DNA of 64,000 bases from a virus. The position numbers were made by a program, and so were the translations under genes. The notes below the pieces were generated by a model that was not told where the DNA came from, did not search any database, and saw only the letters and a program-made list of their open reading frames with translations. The stretch lies in the UHGV virus genome UHGV-0168042; one strand, 5' to 3'. Shown piece after piece: positions 9,572 to 63,045 of the stretch (position 1 is the first letter of the stretch; each line of letters opens with the position of its first letter).

Positions 9572-9764
9572 AACAAAGCCTCTCAGTCATAACCTGGTGG
9601 AAACTGTATGCAGGGTGTGAAATGCGAGAAACAGACAGGCCACCAGTTCAGGGGGATGTGGTTCATAAATCCCCTCACTGGTGACAAGTGACTTTCATTA
9701 ATCTTTATGCGGGGGCCAGCTTCATTTGCTGGCATTAGATTAAAAATTAAACGGAGTGAATGAC

Positions 9765-13382: not shown

Positions 13383-13694
13383 ATTGGCAGCCTCCTTTTG
13401 CTAATTTAAGGAGCTACCGCGTGAGGTTCCAATCTCAATGGCGGTAGCACTGACTGGGTTGGAACTACCGGCGCAAAAGGGAACCGGCCTGCCTTTCGGC
13501 AGCCCAGCCAGCACTACCATTGATCTCTGAGCTAAACGCTACGTATGGCTGTGCGATGGCATGACACAAGAAAAGACGCTTTCGGCGTCTGTGTCGCCTT
13601 TTGCATTATCCGGGGTTCCAATCCCGGCACCCGTTTTTCTAAGGTGCCGTAGAAATATACCCCACGATAATGCCAGGGCGCAACAGTCAGTATT

Positions 13695-39190: not shown

Positions 39191-39266
39191 TGGTGGCCCC
39201 TACCGGACTTGAACCGGTGACCGTGCGATTATGAGTCGCCCGCTCTAACCACTGAGCTAAAGGGCC
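39191..39266 (-). tRNA. tRNA with CAU anticodon, most similar to tRNA-Ile2 (lysidine-modified, AUA-reading)
   Basis: GGCCCTTTAGCTCAGTGGTTAGAGCGGGCGACTCATAATCGCACGGTCACCGGTTCAAGTCCGGTAGGGGCCACCA; cloverleaf folds; anticodon stem-loop identical to E. coli ileX as recalled. Confidence 0.8.
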
Positions 39267-40465: not shown

Positions 40466-40783
40466 CCTCTCACTCCATTATTTAACGAATAAAAAAGCTG
40501 CGGTGCCTGGTGCCTCCAGGTGACGTTAACCAGTTAACAATTAACGCCGGGATGTTTGACTTAACCACTAAGGAGGATTGTTTTAACTGTTCCGCGTGCG
40601 CAATGGGACGGTTTTCAAGACTGCTTGAGCACCATGCTCCCTACTCTCCCGTTATTGTGGCGACCGGTGCTGATCTCCGGCTTGCGGTTATTTCAGACTC
40701 TCACGGGCGTTTAATTGCCCCGCCGAACAGCTCTTTTCCGCAATAGCTGCAATGTCTTTCGCGCATCAGCCTGCGCATTCACC

Positions 40784-41103: not shown

Positions 41104-41179
41104 TGGTGCCGGTTAACGGACTCGAACCGCTGACATCCTGCTTACAAGGCAGGCGCTCTACCAACTGAGCTAAACCGGC
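41104..41179 (-). tRNA. tRNA-Thr (anticodon UGU)
   Basis: GCCGGTTTAGCTCAGTTGGTAGAGCGCCTGCCTTGTAAGCAGGATGTCAGCGGTTCGAGTCCGTTAACCGGCACCA; canonical stems. Confidence 0.8.
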
Positions 41180-41181
41180 AT

Positions 41182-41258
41182 TGGCGATGGTGGGTGGATT
41201 CGAACCACCGACCGACAGCTTAGAAGGCTGCTGCTCTATCCTACTGAGCTACACCATC
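41182..41258 (-). tRNA. tRNA-Arg (anticodon UCU, AGA/AGG-reading)
   Basis: GATGGTGTAGCTCAGTAGGATAGAGCAGCAGCCTTCTAAGCTGTCGGTCGGTGGTTCGAATCCACCCACCATCGCCA; 2 nt from tRNA-Thr. Confidence 0.8.
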
Positions 41259-44956: not shown

Positions 44957-45217
44957 TTAAAGGGTTATTTTATCCTGTTCGGATAATTCTTTGATTGTCT
45001 TGTCGATTGCGATCAACCAACCTTCATAGGTTAAATCATCAACAAGTTCTACCAACTTATCATCGGTGTGAGGAAAGTATATCCAGCTCCAGTTCGCAGG
45101 GTTTTCTGCTTTTCGCAGCGTAAAAACCTTCTTGTATCGGTGGAACTCAAGGATATACCCCTTCGATATGGAATATTCCTTTAGGTCTTCGACCGTAAAC
45201 CTACGATTCTTTCGCAT
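44957..45217 (-). CDS. Hypothetical protein
   Basis: 86-aa ORF downstream of the DarB-like gene. Confidence 0.4.
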   Translation of the reverse strand: MRKNRRFTVEDLKEYSISKGYILEFHRYKKVFTLRKAENPANWSWIYFPHTDDKLVELVDDLTYEGWLIAIDKTIKELSEQDKITL

Positions 45218-45219
45218 GG

Positions 45220-45654
45220 CTACCCCATGATTCGATATTTCTCTATAGACTCGTCGTAACTTATGTACACGTATGGCTCTGTATCATCAGCATAAGGTGC
45301 GACTTCCAGAGCATGAACGGGATTGTATACCGCGTCATTTTCCAGGCGATCGCTCGAATACAGATGCCCAGCCAAAACCGTAAGCGCCGGGCGACTCATT
45401 TTGTAGATCTCTGCCACATCACTATCTACAACTTGTCCAAATGATATGTCGCCGCGCTCCAGCAATATCGTTTTGAGCGCGGGCCACCACGGACCATAAA
45501 GGTGATAAAGCTGTGGATTTTTCTTCAGTCTTTCTACCATGCCATCAAGATAAACTGTCAGGTATTCTTCTTCACTCCTGCCATTGAGCGCCTGCGGCAA
45601 GATTTCCTCAAGGTAGGATTCCGTCGGTTTTACAGTGTCAATTAGTGTCGTCAT
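45220..45654 (-). CDS. Hypothetical protein
   Basis: 144-aa ORF; AAGGAG lies 25 nt upstream of the ATG with a hairpin in between. Confidence 0.45.
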   Translation of the reverse strand: MTTLIDTVKPTESYLEEILPQALNGRSEEEYLTVYLDGMVERLKKNPQLYHLYGPWWPALKTILLERGDISFGQVVDSDVAEIYKMSRPALTVLAGHLYSSDRLENDAVYNPVHALEVAPYADDTEPYVYISYDESIEKYRIMG

Positions 45655-45690
45655 TCAAATTCGGCCCCGGTTGGGGCCGCTCCTTATCTG
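45655..45690 (-). promoter_or_regulatory. Hairpin inserted between Shine-Dalgarno and start codon (split RBS)
   Basis: Minus strand: AAGGAG-CGGCCCC-AACC-GGGGCCG-AATTTGA-ATG; folding brings the SD to about 7 nt from the ATG. Confidence 0.35.
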
Positions 45691-48600
45691 TTAGGCCGCA
45701 TCGGCGATTATTTTACGCAGTTCATCTACCGAGTAACGCGTAGATACCATCCACGCCGGACGGTCAAAGTTCACATCAGCAACCGGGTTTGCTTCAAAAT
45801 TCCAGAAACGCCCGCCAATCTTCTTAATCGCGTCTTTGGCGTTCCGTATTGTCGAGGAACCTGGCTGGTCGGCAATGAGATAAACCGCGCCAACGTCTTC
45901 GCTGACGCTCCACCAGCGCCCGCGAACACGCGCCTTAGCGCGAATCGGCTTATCATTAACCACAATGATATAGTCATCATTCGCCGCTTCATCAGCTCTG
46001 GCTTCAGCCACTGCCGCCTGCTCTTCTCTTTTGCTTTCAGCCTGCTCAAGCCTTTCCGCGATCTCTGATTCAGTGGCCCCGCCGTTTTTCAGCGATACAT
46101 AGTCCTGCCATGTTGCCGATTTGAGCGTATCCGGCAACTCATTCACATAGTCGCCGTCTTTCAACTCACGGGCGCGACGGGTAGCCATTTCTACCAGGCG
46201 ATTAACAGAAACAGCATCAGCAAAATCGTCCTTACTAATGTGTTTTTCATCAAATGCATTGATGACAGCCCCCACCTTAATCCACTGTGCTGCTGGTGAT
46301 TCCAGGGGGTTATCAGCCTGAACAATGGCAAGTTTCGCTCCATCTACCCCATTATTCGCCAGCTGTTCCAGTGCCGCCCATCCATCTGCATCACTGAGTG
46401 ATTTATATTGCTCAAACAATGCATCGCGCCAGGCCACCAGCGCAGAACGTGTTTTTTCGATCTTCGCCTTAATTTTCGCGATCTTGACCTGATTAAACAT
46501 CCGTTCAATATCATCGATATTGCTAAAGGCTTTCATCCTGCCCTGGAATAAACGGTATGCCAGCACGGTCCTCCAGAATGATTCCAGACCTTCTCCGGAC
46601 GGTTTGCGGAACAAGCTAAGAATATCTTCAGAAGTGACTTTATTAAGCGAACGACCTGACAGACCACGCCCAGCCATCCAGTTTTCGAACTCCTGGGCAA
46701 CATCATCCATCGTTGCCTGTGCGCCCCATGCCTGCATTCCCTGGATGTAATCATACCCATACAATGCCTGGAGGAATCCCTCGCCGTCCACGATATTCAG
46801 CGGGTTATCACTGGCTTGTATTTTTGCCACTTCACGCTTCAGCGCCTCGTCGTTGCCATCAGGATATATCCATCGCTCAGGTGCTATATCCGATGCTCGC
46901 CCGATTTTTTGGCCTATCACGCCATCATAGGTCGATGACAGCGCGATCTGACCATCATCTGTGCGATAAGCCCAGTATTTAATAGCTGACCCACCGCCCC
47001 ATGCATTACCAGGTTTACCAGCAATAACATTCATTACCCCATTGCGAATAGCATCATAGAACTGATCGCGAGTAAGTATTGTTGATAGCTGGTGGCACTG
47101 AACACCACGCGCAGCCGTTGCGCGCGATTCAGCTACCCCCTCTTCAAAAGTTACCGCTTCAATCACTGAGTCAAACGGTAATGTTACGATTGATCCAGGT
47201 GATCGAGCGTAACGGCTTGCTCTATCCAGCCAGGCGATACGACAGAGGTATTGTGCTTTTTCACCATCAATTTTTTCCACCCGGACAATCGCTGTTGTTT
47301 CGCGATCATCAATGACTGCACGGTAATAACTACCTTTATGCAACAGAATGTTCTTGTCAGTGCGCATATATTCTTGCGGGTTCTGAATAACATCGATACT
47401 GATATCCAGCACACCAGACTTAATAGCGCGCTCCACATCACCACGAGAGCGTTTCATTATGGTATCCGCGTCTTTTGCCCTGGTGATCGCAAACCGCAGC
47501 ACCCGCGCACGTTTTCTGTAGCTACTCAACTGCTCAAGCGCGTATTTTTGCCCATTCCTGTTCGTACCCGCTTTTATCAGGTCGTCAAGATTGCGCTGGT
47601 AATACTCTATCTGTTCCATCGCGCTTTTCAGTTCTGTCTCCATCATGCCGATATCTTTTCCGGCGGCGTTTGCCGCTTTCAGGTAGATATCGAGAGCATT
47701 GTTGGCCTCGCGCTGTGCTTTCAGTTTCAGACGTTCTTCACGCTCTTGCGCCTGGCGAGTCATGATTGCGCGGCGTTCTTCCGGGTTTGCCGCCAGCATA
47801 ATGGCGCGTTCATCAGCATCATCCGCATCACCATTGGCGATCTCTGACATGTCGGAGGTCATCACCATCTTGATCCAGTCTTTCTTACGTTTCAGCGTAT
47901 CCAGACGGAAGTCGTCGAATGTGCCTTTGCCACAATAGTAGTGAACATTGACCTTCTCTTGCGGTGAACCTACGCGCGCACCGCGCCCATTTCGTTGGTC
48001 GATACTGGCTGGTGTCCAGGGTAGTGTCAGGTGGTGGATATCGGTTGTCCCGATGTGCAGGTTAATACCTACTTCAGCCTTCTTGTTACAGATTATGATA
48101 CGCGTGCGACCTTCGTTATAGTCGGCGGCAATACCTTCCATGCCCTCAAGGCCAGCATCATTTTTAGCTGAGAGATAATCCTCATATTGGGCAAGTTTGC
48201 TGTAGTAGGTTTCCCATGCCCCTTCTTTGTATTCACCGTTTTTGTTTGGAGTAGGTTCGGTCGGCTTATTCACCTTCTTCAGCTTGATGCCGCCAGCCTG
48301 GCTAACTGTCGTCGCATTGATAATGCCAATCTCCTGCTCCGGCATTTGCAGTGCACTGGCGATAATACGGCGCAGCTTCTGGTGCTGGGCTTTTTCATCA
48401 ATAAAGACGATCTGCTTACCGTTCTTCAGACCTTCACGAAGATTTTCGATCAGCGCGGCATACTTCGGCGGGATGGGGTGCGATACCTGCTGCATATCAA
48501 TGCCGGCAGCCGCAATGGCCTTCAGTATTTCAGCTTCCAGTTCAATGCTGGCACGTATTTCAACATGCGTCGGATGTTCACTAAAAGCGGTCTTCACTAC

Positions 48601-51600
48601 CTTGCTGGTACGCGTACTGACCAGCCCGCCAGCGCCGTCTTCCTCGGCCTCATCAACATCATCTGCCACTTTACCGCCAGCTACTTTTGGCAAGGCATCA
48701 GCAATAGCTTTTACCTGGTCTGCAAGCTCAACGGGGAACTGGAATGTAATCGCACTGGCATACAGATCCGGGTCTATAGCAACCTTGTCCATGTCACGGA
48801 TGATGGAGAAGATGAAATCATCCGGTTTGTCGTTAGTGATATGCCCGTTTTCATCGACTGTCAGCTCATCATTGCGACTTAACTCCTGAGCACGCTTACG
48901 AAGCTCTTCATAAGCAGTCTCCTGCTCCCCTGTCATCGGGATCTGCAAGGTGTTCTCGATGATGTCGGGAATTTTAACCGTCGCTCCGACATCTGCAGCA
49001 GTCTTCAGAGTGGTCCAACGATGGAAAATACCACGCAGGCCGTCAAGGTTCTGGAAGCCCACCAGCCCCTGCTTCTCTTCCACTTCCCCGGAAATTTTCT
49101 GGACCTGAACTGTGGCTGTTTTGCCAAACACACGAACGAAATCATCAGGCGTAATGATGCCCATGCGCATCCACTCTTCCTGCGGAATGACAGTAGACAG
49201 CATGTTGAAGGCATCAATCGGACTGTTCACCAGCGGTGTTGCCGTCAGCATGACTACACCACGCCCGTTGTTGCGTTTCATCATGTACGCAGCTTTTACA
49301 ACCATGTCGCGGGCCATCTTGGATACTGCCGGGTTAGGCAAATATGCCAATTGTCCCGCTTCACGCCCGGCATTAAAGGAGTTGCGGTAGTTATGCCCCT
49401 CGTCGGCAATCACGCTATCGAAGTTCATATCCTCAAAGTACGGGATATTCTGCTTCTTCGTTGTACCGGTATTCGCGGCCTGATCCTTAATCTTGTTCTT
49501 CTTCTGCGCATCACGGTGTTTACCGGACGCCAGGTCAAGACGCCCCATTTCCACAGCATTAAAGACAGCTTGCTGTGAGTTCTCCTCGATGGTTTTTTCT
49601 CGTAGCGGGATAGACGCGAATTGTTCTTTTGTCATGATGACCGTTCGCCAATTTGACGACGGGATCATGTTCATGCGCTGAACGATAACGGCGCTGGCGG
49701 ACTCTTTCACAACATTTCTGGTAAGAGGCTGCCCGTTACTGTCGAGGCGTGGTTCGCCATTTTCATCAAGCACCGGCGCGGTCAGAATATTTCCGCTGTC
49801 ATCACGAACTTCATCCAAACCGATAAACATCATATTGGCGAAGGCATCAGCACTGTAGAAACTCTGTGCCTCGTGATACCAGTTCTGATAAACCGCCTTC
49901 GGAACAACAATACACGTGCGTTTAGTGCGACCTGTTTCGAAGTTATACGCCTCAAGCGCAAGCGCGGTCGTGGTTTTACCCAGCCCGGTACCAAATCCCA
50001 TGATGCCGCGCCCATCTTCTGACAAGCGCCGAACTTCTTCATTCTGATAAGTAAGAGGAATGCGCTTTCCACTAAGCCCTTCCAGGCCAAGCGGTGCGTC
50101 AGAATGCGTGAACGGAATGAAACCATTGAATGCGTCGTTATACTCGCGGGCTATCTGATCAGCCTGCGGGTGAGTGCGTAACCAGTCGTTAAAACTAACT
50201 TCCAGTTGAGCAATTTTATCCAGGTACTCGTTAGCGTTCTGCCCACGCGGTTTAACACCGTTCAGGTAGTTTTCTAACTGGTTCAGGAAGCCGTCTTTAT
50301 TGTTGGCCTTCTTGAACTCATTCCCGTTTTTGCCGTTTACGGTTCGTAGCTGATAGCCGGTAAATACCCCGTCCTTACCTTCGTAATCGTCCGGAGATAC
50401 CAGAATGCCATCGACGACCTTCAGATCAGGTTCAGTGTACTTAAACTCGTCATAGCCCTGCTCTGCCAGGAACTCTTTTATCAAGCGGCGATCCAGCCAG
50501 CGGGCATTCAGATTAACGGTGACTTTATTTAGTGGCGTGAAAATGCGTTTCTCTTCGATTTTCGCCAACTGACGCTCAAAGTTCGCTTTCTGCTCACCTG
50601 TTGACGCATCACGCCAGCCCACCAGCAATGCTGTTTTGGTTGCAACATCGCCGCTGGTGGCGCGGTCCATCGGCAGCAGACAGCCATACCCATCAATAGC
50701 GATATCATCAAATTTCGCCAGGTATTCAAGGGCCGCGTCGTCGTCCTCTGGCAGTTCACCAGCAAACGCCTCACGAAAGTCTCCCAGCGTTATAGGATTA
50801 AGGGCTACATCACTGAAAAGATGTGCTATCACTTGTTCAGGACGTGTAAAGTCAATACCGGCAGCACCATCCGTTACATCAAGTCGCCCTGCCAGAAGGT
50901 CAGAAGTGGAACCATCCTGTTTCACATTGCCAGTGAACGTCATCCAGTTTTTAGCGCCAGCTTCAGCAAGCCCATTCAGCTTAATGGCGTGCGGTGGTCC
51001 ATACTTCGCAACTTCTGCTGCCGCCAAGCGGGATGCATCTGCCAGTTTGTCATCAACGTTCACACCCAGGTTACGCAAATCAAGTGCCTTGTTGATCAAC
51101 TGACCTATCAGCGCACCGCGCATAACGCGCTCCCTGTCTTTTTCTCGCTGCTTGCCAGCAAAGCGAATCATTGCTGCCACTTCATCACTGACAACCGATG
51201 GATAGTCGGACGCGATCGCCGATATCTGGTCCCATGACAAAGCCAGAATCCCGTTTGTTGACTGGAACGCGATCTGCAGATCGCCAAACGTCGAAACACC
51301 ATATCGACTTACATCAAGCGCGGAGGATTTGGTTGTCGTGTCCTTAACCCATTTCAGACCATCAAACTCATGCCAGATACCGCCTACAAGGCGTTTATCG
51401 CCCACTTTCGCGCCCTGCCATGCCTGAGTAGTTACGCCGAGCAAATCCCAATTGATGCGACTATCAAAGCGACGAGATAGCGCGGTTTTCATCGACTCAT
51501 TGGATACACGACCGTCTTTTTTCACCACCAGGGTATTGCGGAAGCTGGTACGTTCCATGTCGCCGTAAACAAATCGCTTCCCTTCGGTTGTAAACCATTT

Positions 51601-52527
51601 TCCTTTGAGGAAGGTATCCCAAAGGACGTTTGCCGATTTGAGTGTTGAATCATCCGTGTCGGGGATCATCTCCAGGAAGGTTTCCGGGTGTTTACGCAAT
51701 ACCCATACGTCCACCACGGTATCTGTACCGGATTCGCTGAACGTACCAGAAGGCATACGATGTGCGCCCAAAAATTCCGCTTTACGGCTGACTTTATCGC
51801 GCAATTTTTTATATTTCGCACCATCGGTCATGCCATTCGGCACCACCAATACGATAAGCCCACCAGGCTTAACCTTGTCGATCGTGCGCAGCACAAAGTA
51901 ATTGCCAACGTTCTTCTCGTTTGCATATGCCGGATCAAGCCCGGCGACACCGGAACGCCCTTCACCAAACGGTACGTTACCAACAGCGTGGTCATACATT
52001 GCGTCTTTCGCCGCCAGTGCCTCAAACGCCCCGATATTCACATCGTCTTCCGGGTGCAAAAGCTGGTTTATTCGACCAGAAATCGGAGACAGTTCGGCGC
52101 TGGTCATTATCATGCCCTGCCGTTTTGTCTCCTGGAAAATACCTGTGCCCGCTGATGGTTCCAGTACGTGCCCGTCATCAATACCGTAGTCAGCAAACAG
52201 ATCCCATATACCTTCAGCCATAAACTGTGGCGTGTAGTATTCGTATTGGCTGCCCTCACCATCTGTCAGGCCACCTTCACCGGTATACCCGGCAAGAATC
52301 TGACGTTGTTCGTCAGTTAATTTCGCCCCATCGAAGCCGGGCGGAAGGGAATTAAGAAGATTTACTGCGGCGTTGTTTGCTGCCCGGCGTGTTTTCTGAA
52401 TACTGACGCCATCGGCTTTCCTGACGCCAAAGGTCGCAACAGCACGTAATTTATGCAACCGACTAACAATCTCAATCAGTTCGCCTAAGCTGGAGGCTTC
52501 ACTGATTGAATGAAGTAGTTTGTCCAA
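45691..52527 (-). CDS. darB: DarB-like giant methyltransferase-helicase protein
   Basis: 2278 aa; N-terminal N6-adenine MTase-like region (VGNVPFGE, DPPY-like), central SF2 helicase motifs (GFGTGLGKTTTALAL Walker A, ADEGHNYRN DExH box, QRNGRGARVGSPQ motif VI); TTG start with GAGGGGG RBS. Confidence 0.8.
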   Translation of the reverse strand: MDKLLHSISEASSLGELIEIVSRLHKLRAVATFGVRKADGVSIQKTRRAANNAAVNLLNSLPPGFDGAKLTDEQRQILAGYTGEGGLTDGEGSQYEYYTPQFMAEGIWDLFADYGIDDGHVLEPSAGTGIFQETKRQGMIMTSAELSPISGRINQLLHPEDDVNIGAFEALAAKDAMYDHAVGNVPFGEGRSGVAGLDPAYANEKNVGNYFVLRTIDKVKPGGLIVLVVPNGMTDGAKYKKLRDKVSRKAEFLGAHRMPSGTFSESGTDTVVDVWVLRKHPETFLEMIPDTDDSTLKSANVLWDTFLKGKWFTTEGKRFVYGDMERTSFRNTLVVKKDGRVSNESMKTALSRRFDSRINWDLLGVTTQAWQGAKVGDKRLVGGIWHEFDGLKWVKDTTTKSSALDVSRYGVSTFGDLQIAFQSTNGILALSWDQISAIASDYPSVVSDEVAAMIRFAGKQREKDRERVMRGALIGQLINKALDLRNLGVNVDDKLADASRLAAAEVAKYGPPHAIKLNGLAEAGAKNWMTFTGNVKQDGSTSDLLAGRLDVTDGAAGIDFTRPEQVIAHLFSDVALNPITLGDFREAFAGELPEDDDAALEYLAKFDDIAIDGYGCLLPMDRATSGDVATKTALLVGWRDASTGEQKANFERQLAKIEEKRIFTPLNKVTVNLNARWLDRRLIKEFLAEQGYDEFKYTEPDLKVVDGILVSPDDYEGKDGVFTGYQLRTVNGKNGNEFKKANNKDGFLNQLENYLNGVKPRGQNANEYLDKIAQLEVSFNDWLRTHPQADQIAREYNDAFNGFIPFTHSDAPLGLEGLSGKRIPLTYQNEEVRRLSEDGRGIMGFGTGLGKTTTALALEAYNFETGRTKRTCIVVPKAVYQNWYHEAQSFYSADAFANMMFIGLDEVRDDSGNILTAPVLDENGEPRLDSNGQPLTRNVVKESASAVIVQRMNMIPSSNWRTVIMTKEQFASIPLREKTIEENSQQAVFNAVEMGRLDLASGKHRDAQKKNKIKDQAANTGTTKKQNIPYFEDMNFDSVIADEGHNYRNSFNAGREAGQLAYLPNPAVSKMARDMVVKAAYMMKRNNGRGVVMLTATPLVNSPIDAFNMLSTVIPQEEWMRMGIITPDDFVRVFGKTATVQVQKISGEVEEKQGLVGFQNLDGLRGIFHRWTTLKTAADVGATVKIPDIIENTLQIPMTGEQETAYEELRKRAQELSRNDELTVDENGHITNDKPDDFIFSIIRDMDKVAIDPDLYASAITFQFPVELADQVKAIADALPKVAGGKVADDVDEAEEDGAGGLVSTRTSKVVKTAFSEHPTHVEIRASIELEAEILKAIAAAGIDMQQVSHPIPPKYAALIENLREGLKNGKQIVFIDEKAQHQKLRRIIASALQMPEQEIGIINATTVSQAGGIKLKKVNKPTEPTPNKNGEYKEGAWETYYSKLAQYEDYLSAKNDAGLEGMEGIAADYNEGRTRIIICNKKAEVGINLHIGTTDIHHLTLPWTPASIDQRNGRGARVGSPQEKVNVHYYCGKGTFDDFRLDTLKRKKDWIKMVMTSDMSEIANGDADDADERAIMLAANPEERRAIMTRQAQEREERLKLKAQREANNALDIYLKAANAAGKDIGMMETELKSAMEQIEYYQRNLDDLIKAGTNRNGQKYALEQLSSYRKRARVLRFAITRAKDADTIMKRSRGDVERAIKSGVLDISIDVIQNPQEYMRTDKNILLHKGSYYRAVIDDRETTAIVRVEKIDGEKAQYLCRIAWLDRASRYARSPGSIVTLPFDSVIEAVTFEEGVAESRATAARGVQCHQLSTILTRDQFYDAIRNGVMNVIAGKPGNAWGGGSAIKYWAYRTDDGQIALSSTYDGVIGQKIGRASDIAPERWIYPDGNDEALKREVAKIQASDNPLNIVDGEGFLQALYGYDYIQGMQAWGAQATMDDVAQEFENWMAGRGLSGRSLNKVTSEDILSLFRKPSGEGLESFWRTVLAYRLFQGRMKAFSNIDDIERMFNQVKIAKIKAKIEKTRSALVAWRDALFEQYKSLSDADGWAALEQLANNGVDGAKLAIVQADNPLESPAAQWIKVGAVINAFDEKHISKDDFADAVSVNRLVEMATRRARELKDGDYVNELPDTLKSATWQDYVSLKNGGATESEIAERLEQAESKREEQAAVAEARADEAANDDYIIVVNDKPIRAKARVRGRWWSVSEDVGAVYLIADQPGSSTIRNAKDAIKKIGGRFWNFEANPVADVNFDRPAWMVSTRYSVDELRKIIADAA

Positions 52528-52536
52528 AGGATTACC

Positions 52537-52581
52537 CCCTCTAAACCGTAAAAATTCCGCTATGCGGTACGGTTGAGAGGG
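52537..52581 (-). promoter_or_regulatory. 14-bp-stem hairpin that occludes the Shine-Dalgarno of the DarB-like gene
   Basis: CCCTCTAAACCGTA-N17-TACGGTTGAGAGGG (13/14 pairs); on the mRNA the 3' arm contains the AGAGGG of the SD, 7 nt before the TTG start. Confidence 0.4.
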
Positions 52582-52677
52582 TATGGAGAATGTTATTTTC
52601 AGGGGGACGATACTACCGTCAAAATCACATACTCCCCATAGTTTGCCTACTTATTAACCCATGACCGGGAGAAAAAT

Positions 52678-53163
52678 ATGGCAAACATTGAACCTCGCTG
52701 GCTAATTGAAGCCCGTAAGCACATTGGCCTGACTGAAATAAAAGGCGCTAAACACAACCCTGAAATCGTTCAGTTCTGGCGCGACATCAAGCGCGGCGGA
52801 ATTAAAGACGATGAAACGCCGTGGTGCGCAGCATTTGTCGGTGCAATGCTGGAACGTGTAGGCATCCGCTCAACAAGATTTGAGTCGGCAAAATCCTATC
52901 TGGATTGGGGCGAGAAATTAGATACACCGGCATACGGATGTATCGTTGTATTTACCCGCGTAGGCGGTGGGCACGTAGGCTTCGTTGTCGGACGCCGCGC
53001 CAATGGCGATCTGCTTGTCCTGGGTGGGAACCAGGGGGATGCGGTTAATATTCGCGCATTCCCAACATCAAGAGTGTCTGGCTATCGCTGGCCTGCTGGC
53101 GAACCACGCAATACCGCTCTGTTACCAGTCGGAGACGCAGCAACCTCAACTAATGAGGCATGA
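52678..53163 (+). CDS. TIGR02594-family protein (putative cell-wall hydrolase-like)
   Basis: 161 aa; W..EAR.HIGL.EI.G...NP.I..FW...PWCAAFVGA...GGGHVGFVVG pattern. Confidence 0.45.
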   Translation: MANIEPRWLIEARKHIGLTEIKGAKHNPEIVQFWRDIKRGGIKDDETPWCAAFVGAMLERVGIRSTRFESAKSYLDWGEKLDTPAYGCIVVFTRVGGGHVGFVVGRRANGDLLVLGGNQGDAVNIRAFPTSRVSGYRWPAGEPRNTALLPVGDAATSTNEA

Positions 53164-53194
53164 AAAAGCCCCGGCCAGGCCGGGGCATCACGCT

Positions 53195-53395
53195 TCAAGT
53201 CACCATCCAATCATTACCGATTATATCAGCCGTCGATAAATCAACTTCCCGGATCTGGAGTCCATTAATACAAAACCATCCGGTAGTAGAGTAATTATCA
53301 GGCCAGGCCCATACACCAACACTCCATGCTTTACGGCGGCACACTTCAGCCTGTCCTTCCCTGATTTTTTTTACCGCCTGCATGATGTCCATCAC
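53195..53395 (-). CDS. Small hypothetical protein
   Basis: 66 aa; start overlaps stop of Rha copy 2; shares KKxxRxxW motif with the C-terminus of 29839-30516. Confidence 0.3.
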   Translation of the reverse strand: MMDIMQAVKKIREGQAEVCRRKAWSVGVWAWPDNYSTTGWFCINGLQIREVDLSTADIIGNDWMVT

Positions 53396-54099
53396 TCACC
53401 TCCCCAACCGATCACCTGGAATTGCCCCATTTTGGGGTGATACCAGCGTTTTCCTCGGTGTTCAGCCTCCGACATCATCCGGTTAAAAGCATTCATGAAG
53501 GGAGATAAGGCCACGATGGAACGACGCGACAATACCCCCTCTGGAGTTAAAAACTCATGCGTATCGGTGGGAATCCGGTAAGCGTTAACCAGGTTGCGAC
53601 ATTTGGCTTCAGTCAGGCCGCATTTCGCCGCCAGCTGGCGGTAGCCAATGTAGCCATCTGGCATATTGCCCTTCTTGATTTGCTCGACGGTTTCAGCGAC
53701 CTGGCTAACCTTTGACTCAACAGCATGAAGCCGCTTTTGCTGCTGAACTGCATTTGCAGCCATTGCGGCGATCATCTCTATTTCGGTCAACGGCTGGCGT
53801 ACTTGTTCTTCCAGTTCGCGCCAGCGGTCCACCAGCCGGGCAGTAAACTCAGGACAAAGCTGTGCGACTACAATGATACTGTCTCGTTTGCCTTGCTCGT
53901 CGCTAAATCGGAACACCTGAATTAATCGAGAACGCCCCATTACATCTATTTTTGGTTCATCCTCAATTTGAGGACGAACAATAACGCCGGATTCGGCTAA
54001 TGTTTCAATGGTACGCTTCACATTGTCATGACGTTTTCCCACCAGCTCCGCGATCTCAATGCTGGTCATTGATGGCTTTTCAAGAATGCAGATATCCAT
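53392..54099 (-). CDS. Rha-family phage regulatory protein (antirepressor-like), copy 2
   Basis: 235 aa; MTSIEIAELVGKRHDNVKRTIETLA; central region near-identical to copy 1 (KRDSIIVVAQL, TARLVDRWRELE, GYIGYRQLAAKCGLTEAKCRNLVNA). Confidence 0.65.
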   Translation of the reverse strand: MDICILEKPSMTSIEIAELVGKRHDNVKRTIETLAESGVIVRPQIEDEPKIDVMGRSRLIQVFRFSDEQGKRDSIIVVAQLCPEFTARLVDRWRELEEQVRQPLTEIEMIAAMAANAVQQQKRLHAVESKVSQVAETVEQIKKGNMPDGYIGYRQLAAKCGLTEAKCRNLVNAYRIPTDTHEFLTPEGVLSRRSIVALSPFMNAFNRMMSEAEHRGKRWYHPKMGQFQVIGWGGE

Positions 54100-54323: not shown

Positions 54324-54653
54324 AGTTACGGCCTCACTAACAGGTTTAACAACCTGCTACCCGCTGTCAAACAGGTGGCAGGACGTGACAGGGTTGACAG
54401 ACTGGCGTTAGTGAAACCAGCAGGCCGAAGCCTCCCCATCACGCCCCACCATAATTCGGGCGTAACGCGGTTTACGGACACAAAAATACCGCAATATCGG
54501 AAATCTGCGGTTGTCCGCACTAACATTCAGGCTGTCAAACCTGGTCGCAGAATTTGCTACGACGGCATGAATATAAGCCTGAAAACATGGAAGATCAACT
54601 AAAAATTTCAGCAATGGATGACTTCAGTCGATGATGCAGATCATACATTCCGA

Positions 54654-58658: not shown

Positions 58659-60056
58659 TTAGTTTTCCGTACGGCAATTATTTAGATCTGTAGAATTTTC
58701 AAACATAGCAAAGTTCAGACCTTTCCCTTCGCCAAATTCACCCTCAATTTCATCAGATACAGCAGACAAAATACGACGCAGATCAACATCGCCACCGCCG
58801 AACATATCGCCCAATGCCTGTTGTTTATGAGTCAGCTCGTCGTTGATTTTTTGCGCCATTTTTTTGAATGCTGCCCCCATACGCTTCGCACTGCGATTAT
58901 TTGCTACGATGAATAACGCCAATGCCTCAGCTTCCGGTGTACTGTCGCCGAATAACCCCCTTTGGGCGATCACTTCTTCAACGGCCTGACCGTTGTCTTT
59001 GGCTTCACGTACAAGATTAATTGCTTCCTGGAGTGCTGCTATCGCCTGTGTATCCAGGCCATTAACCTGCTCTATACCGTCCACTAAGCCTGTTACTGCG
59101 TCATGGTGAGCGTCGCCAGACAGCGACTGCATTTGCGCAAAATCGCTGGCTGCCGTATTTAATGCGGTCAGGATATTACGCATTTCCGGATCTGGCTCTT
59201 CCGACACCAGCCGAACAAGCCTTTCATCCTTGTACGCTTTGGCAAAAATTGCATTCTGGATGCGATCGATAAGCTGTTTCGTGGGACGCCCATCGGCAGT
59301 AAGCAAGCCTGCCGTCGCTGTATCGCCAATTTCGCGCAAAAACGCACGAATAAACGCATCATTGGACCGCGCCAGCAGATTTCCATCATCTGAAGGATTA
59401 AATAGCGCCATGACGCTCTCAGTGAGAAATTGCGCATCCGCATACGCTTTTTCACTTGCTGCCATCTCTTGCAGATCGCTAATGTTTGAATCGCGGGCAA
59501 ATTGAGCGCGGTCTACATCTGTGAGTCTTTCTCGCACCAGTACGGGCATAGACATTTGCGAAATTTCGTCAGGATTCAGACCAAACTCTTTCGCATGGTC
59601 GATCAGGTACTGGCGATACTCATCCGCCTGTCCTTGCTCATAGGCACGCCAGATACCCATACTCCTTCCGTTGCCGGATTCAACAACGTTGTCCGGACCA
59701 ACTATCGGCGCTCCGTGGCTGCTCATACCGGAATCCGTTAATTGTGCCGGGCGTAAATTGGAGGCAATACGGTTAACCTGGAGTTTGCTGGATAACCGGG
59801 TACGATCTCGTGGTTGGAGTTCTTCCGGGAAGGCCGGGTTAATCGTACCGTCAAGGTTGTTCGAAATGATCAGACTGCTGGCATCAACGACCTTAAAAGC
59901 CGTCTTTACCTCTGCACCTTTGCTGGTGACTACGTAGCTACTTCGCCCCAGGCGTGTTTCTTTCCTCTCTAATGAAGAAACCAGAGCAATGACGCTGTTA
60001 ATATCTGTGGCCCCGGAAAGCGCAGAAGTAACTGATTTGTTCAAAATACACTCCAA
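58659..60056 (-). CDS. Hypothetical structural/internal protein
   Basis: 465-aa ORF. Confidence 0.4.
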   Translation of the reverse strand: MECILNKSVTSALSGATDINSVIALVSSLERKETRLGRSSYVVTSKGAEVKTAFKVVDASSLIISNNLDGTINPAFPEELQPRDRTRLSSKLQVNRIASNLRPAQLTDSGMSSHGAPIVGPDNVVESGNGRSMGIWRAYEQGQADEYRQYLIDHAKEFGLNPDEISQMSMPVLVRERLTDVDRAQFARDSNISDLQEMAASEKAYADAQFLTESVMALFNPSDDGNLLARSNDAFIRAFLREIGDTATAGLLTADGRPTKQLIDRIQNAIFAKAYKDERLVRLVSEEPDPEMRNILTALNTAASDFAQMQSLSGDAHHDAVTGLVDGIEQVNGLDTQAIAALQEAINLVREAKDNGQAVEEVIAQRGLFGDSTPEAEALALFIVANNRSAKRMGAAFKKMAQKINDELTHKQQALGDMFGGGDVDLRRILSAVSDEIEGEFGEGKGLNFAMFENSTDLNNCRTEN

Positions 60057-60138
60057 CGATAGAGAAAGCTGTGAGTGTAAAAAGTGTGTGATTTATGTGA
60101 GAACAGATAAGTGAAAGGGGCATTTCAGCCCCTTTTGA

Positions 60139-60507
60139 TTACCCGGCATAACCGTTAGCTTTCACCCAGCTTATGGTCTGCTCTTTAGCCTGCTCCAACG
60201 TAAGGAACTCGCCAACATAGTTTGATATCCCACGCAGCGCATCAATAAATTCCATTTGTGTGGACTTTGTGAAGACACCGCCCAGGAAGTCAGTCACTAT
60301 CTTAGGGACTTCATCTACAACAGGATCAGTCTGTTGTTGCGGTTCCGCTGCCGGTTGCGCGGCAGTCCCCAGGCCCAATTTCAGCATCACATCAACAATC
60401 TGCTTACCAATGGTGACGCGTTGCAATACTGGCGCAGTTTTCTGCGCCTGCATTAGATCTGATAGCTCTTTACCTAATTTCAGGCGGTCTAAAACAGAGA
60501 TGGTCAT
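60139..60507 (-). CDS. Hypothetical protein
   Basis: 122-aa ORF; start overlaps upstream stop. Confidence 0.4.
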   Translation of the reverse strand: MTISVLDRLKLGKELSDLMQAQKTAPVLQRVTIGKQIVDVMLKLGLGTAAQPAAEPQQQTDPVVDEVPKIVTDFLGGVFTKSTQMEFIDALRGISNYVGEFLTLEQAKEQTISWVKANGYAG

Positions 60508-62471
60508 TAAGCACCTCCCTGCTGAATTTCAGCCAGAATGTTGATCAGGTAGTCAACTGCTGCACCAACAGTGGCTTCGTTCTCGTCGTATCGACCTGCA
60601 CTGATTAGAGCGTTTGCTGCTTCCTGCACATGATCAAGTTCAGCACTGATGACCGTCAGATCGCGGGATGTAAACTGCTCCGGCACGGATTTCAGGTACT
60701 CCAGTGCTTTATCTGCCTCCTGATCAGCTTCACTTGCTGATTCACCAGCTTCTTCTGGCTCCGGCTCCTGTTCTGGTGCTGGTTGTGGTTGTGATTCCGG
60801 CTCAACCACATGCTCTGTTTTTACTTCGCTTGAATGATTTTGAAGGGCGTTATACACGTCCATAATGAAAAGGTTCTCCCCATCACCAAGTGGATACGCC
60901 ACGTTTGGAAACGCTTTGCGGAAAAGAATTTTCACTTGCGCCTTGAATGTTTTCAGGTCACTGCCAAACAGGTCTACATAGCCATCAATATGTTTCGACA
61001 TGCTGGACACAACCAATTGGCCTGCAAAATCTTTCAGCTCATCTTCATCAGGAAGATAAAGCAACTCGTACTGGCTGACTTCTTCATCTGTCAGTTTACG
61101 GTCATACGTAATGATACCGTGACGAGCATATTCGTAATACTGATCAGCCTGGTCAGGACGATCAAGCACGGCTTTATTTCCATCCGGCACAGCACCAACA
61201 CCAGCCGGGCGAGATTGAAGTGCATAGTGGTATTTACCTACATCCTGGCTCTCTGGTTGTGATACTGGGTTCGTCTCGGGGTCTGTCTGTGGTGGTTCGG
61301 GGTCTTCCTGCTGGCCTGGTAACACATCAACTTTATATTTATCTGCGTTATGCTCTCGGTAGGCTTTAAGTAATTTGGTTGCAGCATCTGCCAAACTGCC
61401 TCCTTTGACAGCACTGGCATCAATACTGAATTTACCTTCAGGTGCTACTATCGTAACGAAATTGTCACTGCCGGACGTGATATAATTAACTTCAGCGCCA
61501 TTATCCAGCACTGTTTTTCCGTCAATGGCAAGATTATGTTTTACATGTCGCAGCTGGTCACTAAACGCTCGTTCCTTCGTTTTTTCACCTTTAGCAGACA
61601 ACAATTTATCGCGTTTTTCTTGTAATTCCTCGTTGATGGCTTTCTGGGCATCAAGTTTTTTTTGCATCTCCGTAAGAGCAGCACGCTTTTCAGTCAGCCC
61701 ACGTTGCGCAACGTCCACCTGATCAATCATTATTGACCGTTCTTCTGCCAGTTTATCTGCTTCATTGAGATAACTCTCAATATCTGCCTTCATTTTGTCC
61801 TGGCGCTCTTTTGCTTTCTTAAATTTTTCGCTGTTACGCTCAATCAAATTAGATAGCGCCTGGCATACCTGGCTTAAAGAAACATCTCTCCCACCAATCG
61901 GGGCGACAACGTGAGTTACGTTACGCTTATTAAGTAAAAACTGAAATGCAACAAGCTCGTCGTTACTCTTTATTTTTGCCCCGTCAGCTGTTGGAGAGTG
62001 GAAAATTATGCTTGTACTCTGCCCGTCAGTAAGCGGTATCTGCGCGGTCAAAACAGGGATATTAGCTACCCGGCGTACACGACCGATAATCGCACCACCA
62101 ATACAATTACGTCCATTTTCATCGGTCCCGGCTTCATCAGTCCCTGCCATAATATTCGTACCATTCAGGCCACGATTCAGCGCACGGACGAAAGCTCGCA
62201 TTGTTTGAGCTAACCGAATTCTGGTTGTAGTTATGGACTCAAACATAGCTTCGTCAGACACAACCAGAATTTCATTGCCCATATAGGCAAGCTCAATATC
62301 TTCTAAGGTCGCCGCCTCAAAAATCAGGTCATCTTCGCTTAATTCTTCTGAAGACCAGCGACTTGGCACATAGCCGGGGATCGTATCAGCAAAAGTAGAC
62401 TGAATATTAATTCGTAAAGGATTGTTAATCATGCTCATCCTCCAGGCGCGCGATTTCTTCTTTAAGAGCAC
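60507..62471 (-). CDS. Large hypothetical protein with central coiled coil and acidic tail (DarA-like by size/position only)
   Basis: 654-aa ORF. Confidence 0.35.
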   Translation of the reverse strand: MLLKKKSRAWRMSMINNPLRINIQSTFADTIPGYVPSRWSSEELSEDDLIFEAATLEDIELAYMGNEILVVSDEAMFESITTTRIRLAQTMRAFVRALNRGLNGTNIMAGTDEAGTDENGRNCIGGAIIGRVRRVANIPVLTAQIPLTDGQSTSIIFHSPTADGAKIKSNDELVAFQFLLNKRNVTHVVAPIGGRDVSLSQVCQALSNLIERNSEKFKKAKERQDKMKADIESYLNEADKLAEERSIMIDQVDVAQRGLTEKRAALTEMQKKLDAQKAINEELQEKRDKLLSAKGEKTKERAFSDQLRHVKHNLAIDGKTVLDNGAEVNYITSGSDNFVTIVAPEGKFSIDASAVKGGSLADAATKLLKAYREHNADKYKVDVLPGQQEDPEPPQTDPETNPVSQPESQDVGKYHYALQSRPAGVGAVPDGNKAVLDRPDQADQYYEYARHGIITYDRKLTDEEVSQYELLYLPDEDELKDFAGQLVVSSMSKHIDGYVDLFGSDLKTFKAQVKILFRKAFPNVAYPLGDGENLFIMDVYNALQNHSSEVKTEHVVEPESQPQPAPEQEPEPEEAGESASEADQEADKALEYLKSVPEQFTSRDLTVISAELDHVQEAANALISAGRYDENEATVGAAVDYLINILAEIQQGGA

Positions 62472-63045
62472 GTGTCTTAGCTACTTCCTGAGACAAGGCA
62501 GCTTTAACGTTACCCGTATCTTGCATTACTTTGTCTGACTTGCTCTGGAGTTTAGACAGTTTGTCGTTAGCATTAGCGATATCTTCACGGAGTGCATCAC
62601 GTGATTCTTTCGCTTCAGCTAATTTCTGAGCGTTAGATTTAACTCCCTGCCGCTTCTTATTTCCGTCATCAATATTTTTTGCTGCACGAGCAAGTTTTCG
62701 AGCTAATGACTTCTGGAAAGAAGTTGCTCCGCGATTAAATAAAGCCGCAAGAGATTGCCCCAAAGCCGACATTGTTTTTCCTGGCTTGAACGGTACTGTT
62801 TTACCATTCAGTTTGATCCCAGATATATCACCGGTATCGTTAACCTGAACTTCCATTGTCTGTTCATCAATACCAATAAGGGTAAACGTGCGCGTCATGA
62901 TCCCATCTTTCTTCCTGCCATTACTTGCAGGGATCACCCTCGCTATCTTGTAACCACCTTTGCTGATTTCTTTGACGAGTTTTGCCAGCCCCTTTTCGTT
63001 TAACTCATCATAATTAAGAAGAACATAATTATTCTTATTTGACAT
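62425..63045 (-). CDS. Hypothetical coiled-coil protein
   Basis: 206-aa ORF. Confidence 0.35.
   Translation of the reverse strand: MSNKNNYVLLNYDELNEKGLAKLVKEISKGGYKIARVIPASNGRKKDGIMTRTFTLIGIDEQTMEVQVNDTGDISGIKLNGKTVPFKPGKTMSALGQSLAALFNRGATSFQKSLARKLARAAKNIDDGNKKRQGVKSNAQKLAEAKESRDALREDIANANDKLSKLQSKSDKVMQDTGNVKAALSQEVAKTRALKEEIARLEDEHD

Follow-up and report, generated by a model that had tools for sequence, protein, structure and literature searches.

Hairpins at the translation starts of darB and ulx in a D6-like relative of phage P1

Split initiation regions, in which a hairpin lies between the Shine-Dalgarno (SD) sequence and the start codon, are reportedly described for phage T4 by Nivinskas et al. 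(1999) and by Malys and Nivinskas (2009). For hairpins that sequester the SD sequence, the MS2 coat gene and the standby model provide a precedent. In T4 genes 38 and 25, the hairpin cuts the spacing between SD sequence and AUG from 22 to 5 and from 27 to 11 nucleotides (nt), respectively, and mutations that destabilize it lower translation (PMC3014915). Experimentally established ribosome-binding sites (RBSs) bridged by a hairpin are few, and these two genes are singled out among them (PMC3014915). In T4 gene e and in I-TevI, leader hairpins sequester the SD sequence, and a late promoter within the structure gives a shorter transcript that is open (PMC3014915). Here we analyze two hairpins, one in the leader of darB and one between darB and ulx, in a 64,000-nt stretch of the virus genome UHGV-0168042; the whole of this stretch is termed the window. 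Both had been noticed from the DNA letters, in an original prediction that saw in them a sign of translational control or coupling around a giant methyltransferase-helicase gene.

The locus is the darB-ulx pair of the Dar (defence against restriction) system in a P1-family phage-plasmid, and the gene pair is already annotated. The region corresponds to the darB-ulx segment of a D6-like plasmid prophage, with 98.7% DNA identity to Escherichia phage D6 over an 8-kb query. In the D6 records (orf15 and orf14), the long open reading frame (ORF) is annotated as 'similar to P1 gene darB' and the one that follows as 'similar to P1 gene ulx', so the darB gene itself is not new. The window represents a relative of D6 and not D6 itself, because the two share no more than 93% identity in Ulx; the Ulx of the window is 99% identical to that of several IMG/VR contigs. 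In P1, DarB is present at about 40 copies per virion and is packaged through its N-terminal 30 residues, and Ulx, a small virion protein that aids DarB localization, is detected as a separate 17-kDa protein (PMC9024508). Capsid packaging of DarB and the protection of incoming DNA from type I (EcoB/EcoK) restriction are known for P1 only (PMC9024508, PMC12810830). We assign a probability of roughly 0.6 to the explanation as a whole, in which two cis-acting mRNA structures would set the translation of darB and ulx.

The hairpin between the SD sequence and the start codon of ulx

The ulx gene (45220-45654; this and all other features of the two genes are on the minus strand) encodes a 144-residue Ulx homolog with an ATG start and 47% identity to P1 Ulx. 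Its SD sequence, AAGGAG (45680-45685), is 25 nt from the ATG on the linear sequence and directly abuts, with a gap of 0 nt, the hairpin CGGCCCC-AACC-GGGGCCG (45662-45679; arms 45679-45673 and 45668-45662). A spacer, AATTTGA, leads from the hairpin to the ATG (45654-45652), leaving 7 nt between SD sequence and ATG in the folded state. The whole junction reads TAA-cagat-AAGGAG-CGGCCCC-aacc-GGGGCCG-aatttga-ATG, with an in-frame TGA immediately 5' of the ATG. A hairpin with a 7-base-pair (bp) stem that parts the SD sequence of the gene after darB from its ATG, as first proposed, is therefore present at 45679-45662. The pattern of SD sequence, hairpin and start codon occurs at four sites in the window, compared with 1.2 expected. 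Three of them are followed by ORFs of 26-47 codons, and ulx is the sole real ORF in the window that has such a site. Because the folding energy of the hairpin alone is unremarkable (z = -2.0), the weight of the observation rests on its relatives.

We collected 90 loci that contain Ulx: 8 from genome contigs (Pantoea, Enterobacter, Citrobacter and Escherichia), 80 from IMG/VR, P1 and the window. They contain 35 distinct darB-ulx junctions, and in each of the 35 the order is stop codon, GGAG (once GAGGA), stem-loop, A/U-rich spacer and ATG. The gap between SD sequence and stem is 0-2 nt, the stem is perfect, GC-rich and 6-8 bp long, the loop has 4-5 nt, and the stem ends 5-9 nt before the ATG. 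On the linear sequence, GGAG is 22-30 nt from the ATG; with the hairpin folded, the distance (gap plus spacer) is about 6-11 nt. The minimum free energy (MFE) of the intergenic region is -12.7 to -17.5 kcal/mol across the junctions. The P1 junction, TAA-c-AGGAG-CGCCCGG-ttcg-CCGGGCG-tcgcataat-ATG, has the architecture of that in the window with a different stem. At least eight stem sequences are found (CGCCCGG, CGGCCC, CGGCCCC, CGGCCUC, UGGCCUGG, GGCCCAG, GCGCUCA and UGCGCCCU), and the loops vary freely (AACC, GGUU, GAAA, GCGA, UUCG and others), often being GNRA or UUCG.

Alignments of the junction made with MAFFT were structurally inconsistent, so covariation was counted in a subset of matched geometry (A6) and in an alignment to a covariance model (A8). 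In the geometry-matched subset, 84 of 84 cells are paired and three of the seven pairs have double-sided changes, the compensatory pattern of a maintained stem; the covariation score is reached by none of 500 shuffles. When the stem partners are slid, pairing collapses to 31-52% in this subset and to 30-58% overall. The covariance model built from this subset gives an E value below 0.001 solely at the junction in each locus, and the 28-sequence alignment (A8) agrees.

No SD-like motif (GGAG, GAGG or AGGA) is found in 33 of the 35 spacers between stem and ATG, which argues that ulx has no usable SD sequence unless the hairpin is folded. The junctions thus combine an SD sequence that lies beyond the functional linear distance of about 15 nt, in nearly all cases no normally spaced substitute, and a hairpin that would bring the spacing back into the range of about 5-11 nt. 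The proposal that SD sequence and ATG come together only on folding is strongly backed by the 35 distinct junctions, the covarying stems and the constrained geometry. Coupling of ulx translation to darB, the other possibility raised at the outset, is not supported. Between the end of darB and the stem the interval is variable (4-18 nt from the stop codon), while the geometry of SD sequence, stem and ATG is constrained, and the frame relation of the two genes is not conserved, with 13 of 34 distinct junctions out of frame. These properties argue against a termination-reinitiation geometry and also against readthrough. From the comparison of junctions, we consider it quite likely that the ulx hairpin is a split RBS that unites SD sequence and ATG, of the type found in T4 genes 38 and 25. 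The conservation of this predicted element throughout the P1/D6 family examined, P1 included, is its most interesting aspect, and of the two hairpins it has the firmer case.

Two further observations concern the same junction. In P1 (5430-5475, minus strand), a heptamer, CGCATAA, flanks the SD-hairpin unit, occurring at the darB stop codon and again just before the ulx ATG; the other clades do not show this repeat. A hairpin of the boxB type, as in N-type antitermination, was considered for ulx and rejected, as the loop sequences are too freely variable.

The stem in the darB leader of the D6 clade

The darB gene (45691-52527) encodes a protein of 2278 residues from a TTG start, which is the first canonical start codon past the upstream stop. 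Residue 1 of this protein aligns with residue 1 of P1 DarB and the N-termini run one to one, supporting the TTG as the start. The correct start matters because the N-terminal 30 residues of P1 DarB are the capsid-targeting signal (PMC9024508); the corresponding 30 residues in the window are weakly similar to those of P1.

The leader stem-loop (52537-52581) consists of an outer stem, an internal loop (AAUUUU) and an inner stem, CCGC/GCGG (52567-52557). In the outer stem, CCCTCTCAACCGTA (52581-52568) forms the 5' arm and TACGGTTTAGAGGG (52550-52537) the 3' arm. Five bases of the SD sequence, GAGGGGGT = GAGGGGGU (52534-52541), lie inside the 3' arm. The SD sequence had been described as buried in the 3' arm of a 14-bp stem; the overlap is as described, but the stem has 13 bp and a C.U mismatch instead of 14 perfect pairs. 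Further out, a clamp formed by UCCA (52587-52584) with UGGA (52526-52523), spanning 52523-52587, pairs the last two bases of the TTG. An unstructured block, GAAAATAACATTCTCCATA (52582-52600), precedes the stem and is conserved; homology among the variants of the D6 clade starts here.

The leader has an MFE of -28.6 kcal/mol (z = -4.1), and none of 200 shuffles folds as well. In the ensemble, the probability that the SD sequence is unpaired is 0.003. Opening the initiation region requires 17.8 kcal/mol, compared with a median of 9.0 kcal/mol, which ranks it fourth among the 83 ORF starts in the window. SD sequence and start codon are thus paired in a predicted structure far above chance stability, as in SD-sequestering leaders. 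Inverted repeats of this quality (14-nt arms, at most one mismatch, spacer of 3-25 nt) number four in the window against 0.25 expected, an excess of about 16-fold; the other three are near 2730, 27020 and 33100. We also considered an upstream leader ORF that would open the stem by coupling and rejected it, as there is no in-frame ATG, GTG or TTG 5' of the TTG.

Thirteen distinct variants of the leader were obtained from plasmids and viral contigs of the D6 clade. All 13 have the same fold, with MFEs of -21 to -29 kcal/mol, a probability of at most 0.004 that the SD sequence is unpaired, and a TTG start. The clamp is UCCA/UGGA in 12 of them and AAUA/UAUU in the remaining one, L042, which together with L043 is the most distant version (Ulx 67% identical). 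In the middle of its stem, L042 has CACAUUCA/UGGAUGUG in place of CAACCGUA/UACGGUUU, a different sequence with complete complementarity, and the lineage of L015 and L041 has an A-U to G-C change in the stem. The inner loops vary and the stems hold. By column counts, 90.7% of cells are paired, two pairs have double changes, and none of 500 shuffles reaches the covariation score. We regard the support from covariation as moderate for this leader, because the sample is small and the bulges are not at the same positions in all variants. The block GAAA(A/T)TAACA(C/T)(A/T)CTC(C/A)ATA, which immediately precedes the stem, is conserved even in variants whose upstream gene differs or is co-directional, and it is possibly a core promoter with the transcription start or a ribosome standby site.

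Predicted roles and alternative readings

In the mechanism that we propose for ulx, the folded GC-rich hairpin would let the 30S subunit read the distant GGAG and the ATG as one site, and initiation would depend on this fold and not on ribosomes arriving from darB. For darB in the D6 clade, the stem would bury the SD sequence and clamp the weak TTG, so that initiation would be limited by rare opening of the stem. The conserved unstructured block 5' of the stem may help as a standby site, and the leader structure may also protect the 5' end of the mRNA of about 7 kb. Most likely, the darB stem throttles DarB translation. A limit on initiation is suggested because the SD sequence is buried, the start is clamped and TTG is weak, and the weak darB starts in other clades (GTG in the Pantoea type and in L074, TTG in L077) agree with it. 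The forecast of translational control stands in so far as both hairpins exist and are evolutionarily maintained, with the conservation, covariation and geometry described above; their action on translation and its direction we infer from sequence.

Several observations weigh against this explanation. With the darB SD sequence closed at about 18 kcal/mol, almost no translation is predicted, whereas the DarB need should be thousands of copies per burst. The stem must therefore be opened or bypassed, given near-silencing at this energy on one side and about 40 DarB copies per P1 virion on the other (PMC9024508). Candidates for this step are standby loading on the conserved block, processing by RNase III and a late factor. 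The only sigma-70-like match in the darB intergenic region, TTGACG-16-GAAAAT (52595-52622), fits the consensus and predicts an mRNA start at about 52588, at the foot of the hairpin. The match is weak, and such matches are no commoner than in shuffled sequence. For a P1-type late promoter (AAGTGAnT-N4-TAnnnT), only imperfect boxes with non-canonical spacing are found 5' of darB; a perfect match occurs elsewhere in the window, at 9686. Within the D6 clade there is little variation, and double changes are seen in 2 of the 17 darB-leader pairs. The darB leaders of P1, of the Pantoea type and of the Citrobacter type have no such stem, so DarB biology as a whole does not depend on it. For ulx, the covarying sequences are kin by descent, so that the shuffle control overstates significance, and A8 is an alignment that the model itself fitted to the structure; the covariation numbers therefore support the structure and are no probabilities. 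In addition, two junctions (L008 and L071) also have AGGA one base 5' of the ATG.

The first alternative is that the darB leader stem is not a brake, which we consider rather unlikely. In lambda, the N leader is cut by RNase III to free an SD sequence, and ompA has a 5' stem-loop. By analogy, RNase III or a late factor might cleave or open the composite helix of about 20 bp at darB and free the SD sequence, or a 5'-terminal stem-loop might keep RNase E off the long mRNA. With its 4-bp clamp, 13-bp stem, 4-bp inner stem and internal loops, the composite helix comes close in size to an RNase III substrate, and the only promoter-like match would begin the RNA at the foot of the stem; under our own proposal, too, the stem of a transcript that starts there would protect its 5' end. 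Closure at about 18 kcal/mol also seems too tight for a protein present at about 40 copies per P1 virion (PMC9024508). Against a role in activation, the invariant weak TTG and the weak starts in other clades point to down-tuning. No trans partner was found either: complementarity to the C4 antisense RNAs encoded in the window is no better than with shuffled leaders, a weak test.

The second alternative concerns the hairpin between darB and ulx, which might be an intercistronic element of mRNA stability, processing or attenuation with the proximity of the ulx SD sequence being incidental. Such hairpins are known as stabilizers in polycistronic mRNAs. This one might act as a barrier to 3' exonucleases for the long darB segment, or as a partial stop to transcription that lowers downstream expression. 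A stable GC-rich stem, frequently with a GNRA or UUCG tetraloop, a few nucleotides past the stop codon of a 6.8-kb gene is what this idea would lead one to expect, and this counts against the split RBS. However, the stem lacks a following U-tract in all 35 junctions, the terminator scan makes no call at the site, and no terminator is annotated at the darB-ulx junction in the curated P1 record. The order is always stop, SD sequence, hairpin, ATG and never stop, hairpin, SD sequence, ATG. The scarcity of SD-like motifs in the spacers and the constrained distances on both sides of the stem, against a variable distance from the stop codon, likewise favor a role in ulx initiation. We therefore regard stability or attenuation as an unlikely sole explanation, although the two roles are not mutually exclusive and could coexist. 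As for the hairpins as intrinsic (rho-independent) terminators, the scan does not call the darB hairpin either; the 3' flanks are AAUUUGA at ulx and GGUAAUCC at darB, and we rejected this candidate for both.

The two elements might further form a joint programme that sets DarB:Ulx stoichiometry and timing, with the D6-clade leader stem as a darB gate opened late, by RNase III cleavage, a phage factor or standby loading on the 5' block, and Ulx synthesis independent of the rare ribosomes on darB. We hold this to be quite improbable; if it were true, classical phage P1 would carry an unrecognized split RBS of the T4 gene 38 type. The notion that the hairpins bracket darB as one coordinated device is not supported by their distribution: the 5' hairpin is confined to the D6 clade, the ulx hairpin is family-wide and includes P1, and the P1 darB leader is unstructured (z = +1.25). 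The rationale that darB is a very costly gene is speculation and unsupported.

It is very unlikely that the inverted repeat at 52537-52581 works as DNA, as the operator of a dimeric regulator or as a cruciform in the divergent darB/orf16 promoter region. The intergenic region is indeed divergent and 150 bp long, and a near-palindrome and a repeated 15-nt motif are nearby. Sense and antisense strands also fold about equally well (mean difference -0.7 kcal/mol), a further point, on energy grounds, against an RNA element; the strand asymmetry from G.U pairs is not significant. On the other hand, the arms of L042 and L015 differ in sequence yet stay complementary, whereas protein operators conserve sequence; it is because complementarity is what has been conserved that we discount a DNA-level role. 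The element is also fixed relative to SD sequence and TTG, though the upstream gene is co-directional or different in several variants. An operator would not typically have 14-bp arms set 17-19 bp apart around an inner stem, and G.U pairs occur in several variants.

With its stop codon, hairpin and SD-like motif, the darB-ulx junction is reminiscent of T4 gene 60. A DarB-Ulx fusion by readthrough or bypass, for which the two genes are in frame with no intervening stop in P1 and several Pantoea-type loci, is effectively refuted by the unconserved frame and by the extra in-frame TGA just before the ATG in the window, and the stop is nearly always TAA and P1 Ulx is a separate 17-kDa virion protein (PMC9024508).

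Surroundings of the locus and comparison with known systems

The protein encoded by darB is an ortholog of P1 DarB, as the description of a 2278-residue DarB-like methyltransferase-helicase with a TTG start had it. The two align over their full length with 40% identity (BLASTP, 2372 aligned columns, E = 0). Pfam places an N6_Mtase domain, the N6-adenine methyltransferase, near the N-terminus (residues 151-282; 51682-52077) and a central SF2/SNF2 helicase whose N-lobe (SNF2-rel_dom/ResIII) covers residues 826-1047 (49387-50052) and whose Helicase_C lobe covers residues 1464-1520 (47968-48138). The motifs, read from the sequence, are intact: EPSAGTG (motif I, residue 123), NVPFG (motif IV, NVPF, residue 184), GTGLGKT (Walker A, residue 846), DEGH (residue 1042), TATP (residue 1095) and QRNGRGAR (motif VI, residue 1511). 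Size (more than 2000 residues), domain order and end-to-end alignment are thus those of DarB. The genomic context is also that of darB, with ulx directly downstream, as in P1, and homologs of hdf, darA, ddrA and ddrB elsewhere on the element (58695-63036 of the window). In several relatives (L006, L055, L015, L080, L084 and L086), darB is interrupted or truncated and the ulx junction is kept; examples are an open frame of 5823 nt in a Pantoea conspicua contig and, in the Shigella dysenteriae plasmid NZ_CP026808 (L015), a 1350-nt fragment annotated as 'N-6 DNA methylase'.

Upstream of darB, a 15-nt motif, GAAAATAACATTCTC (52586-52600, minus strand), has an inverted close copy, CAAAATCACATACTC (52620-52634, plus strand), and a near-palindrome, ACGATACTACCGT (52607-52619), lies between the two copies. 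This arrangement could be a shared bidirectional promoter or a regulator site. The motif was rejected as a repeated promoter element, since its other matches in the window fall within coding sequence and are about as numerous as expected by chance. P1 and the Pantoea-type (GTG start) and Citrobacter-type (ATG start) loci share a -10-like hexamer, TAGAAT, upstream of darB. In the distant clade of L074 and L077, a palindrome, TAGAAT...ATTCTA (13 of 14 bp in L077), overlaps this hexamer about 60-90 nt upstream of darB and is a candidate operator that would cover the promoter of darB. A GC-rich hairpin with T-runs, GCCCCGGCC-TGG-CCGGGGC (53168-53186), lies between orf16 (plus strand) and the convergent orf17 (minus strand) and fits a bidirectional terminator that would isolate darB from the upstream ant operon.

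Two C4 antisense RNA loci are present on the minus strand, at 54371-54456 with 54524-54576 and at 13437-13524 with 13569-13647. One adjoins its a1/b1 target upstream of icd-ant; the second, about 40 kb away, adjoins an isrK-like RNA. C4 was rejected as a trans partner of the darB leader on the strength of the duplex energies, which are no better than with shuffled leaders; the duplex numbers are odd and the test is weak. A gathering-threshold Rfam scan reports only tRNAs, C4, c4-a1b1 and isrK, all away from the two hairpins, and no curated Rfam family matches either hairpin at E values up to 5 over 45000-53400. Three tRNA genes on the minus strand, tRNA-Met(cat), tRNA-Thr(tgt) and tRNA-Arg(tct), are predicted by ARAGORN and Rfam at 39191-39266, 41104-41179 and 41182-41258. 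At the equivalent places, the D6 GenBank records have tRNA-Thr and tRNA-Asn genes on the plus strand; the Met(cat) gene is missing from these records, and a tRNA-Ser is given at about 40553-40639, a stretch in which ARAGORN detects no tRNA. The D6 annotation is probably at fault.

Compared with P1, the window shares the domain order and catalytic motifs of DarB, the darB-ulx gene order and the other Dar genes, with protein identities of 40% and 47% for DarB and Ulx. The differences are in the flanks and in the start of darB. P1 darB starts with ATG, while darB in the window starts with TTG behind a structured leader. The upstream neighbor is a divergent TIGR02594 peptidoglycan-hydrolase-like gene in the window and prt in P1; downstream of ulx are morphogenesis genes (pmgM/R/S-like) in the window and lxc-mod-res in P1. 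Neither hairpin is annotated in the D6 and P1 GenBank records.

If ulx works like T4 genes 38 and 25, it would be an independent example of a hairpin-bridged RBS, deep in phylogeny, with covariation, and in P1, which is genetically tractable. P1 would then be a clean system for studying how the 30S subunit accommodates a helix between SD sequence and start codon. Phage-plasmids like P1 and D6 are found widely among Enterobacterales and serve as delivery vehicles. Since DarB and Ulx levels affect the survival of injected DNA under type I restriction, knowledge of the cis elements behind their expression would be useful for engineering.

The hairpins are best filed as known kinds of translational cis-elements on a known gene pair. 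The ulx hairpin shares its GC-rich stem, its stable tetraloop and its position just past a stop codon with rho-independent terminators and stabilizer hairpins, and it differs from them in that no junction has a U-tract and the ulx SD sequence is upstream, not downstream, of the hairpin. The darB leader resembles those of T4 gene e, I-TevI and MS2 in that its SD sequence is in a stable 3' arm, its start is partly paired and its 5' flank is unstructured. Unlike T4 gene e and I-TevI, it has no evident internal promoter, no promoter-like sequence being seen inside the stem, and there is no obvious read-through transcript to silence, because the terminator-like hairpin at 53168-53186 lies upstream. 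The closest counterparts of the ulx element are T4 genes 38 and 25: the spacing between SD sequence and AUG (22-30 nt, folded 6-11 nt), the intercistronic position and the conservation within a phage group are alike. The T4 elements are known from probing and mutagenesis and the ulx element from sequence comparison; ulx belongs to an unrelated phage family and gene, and its stem is shorter and more GC-rich, is capped by a tetraloop and abuts the SD sequence.

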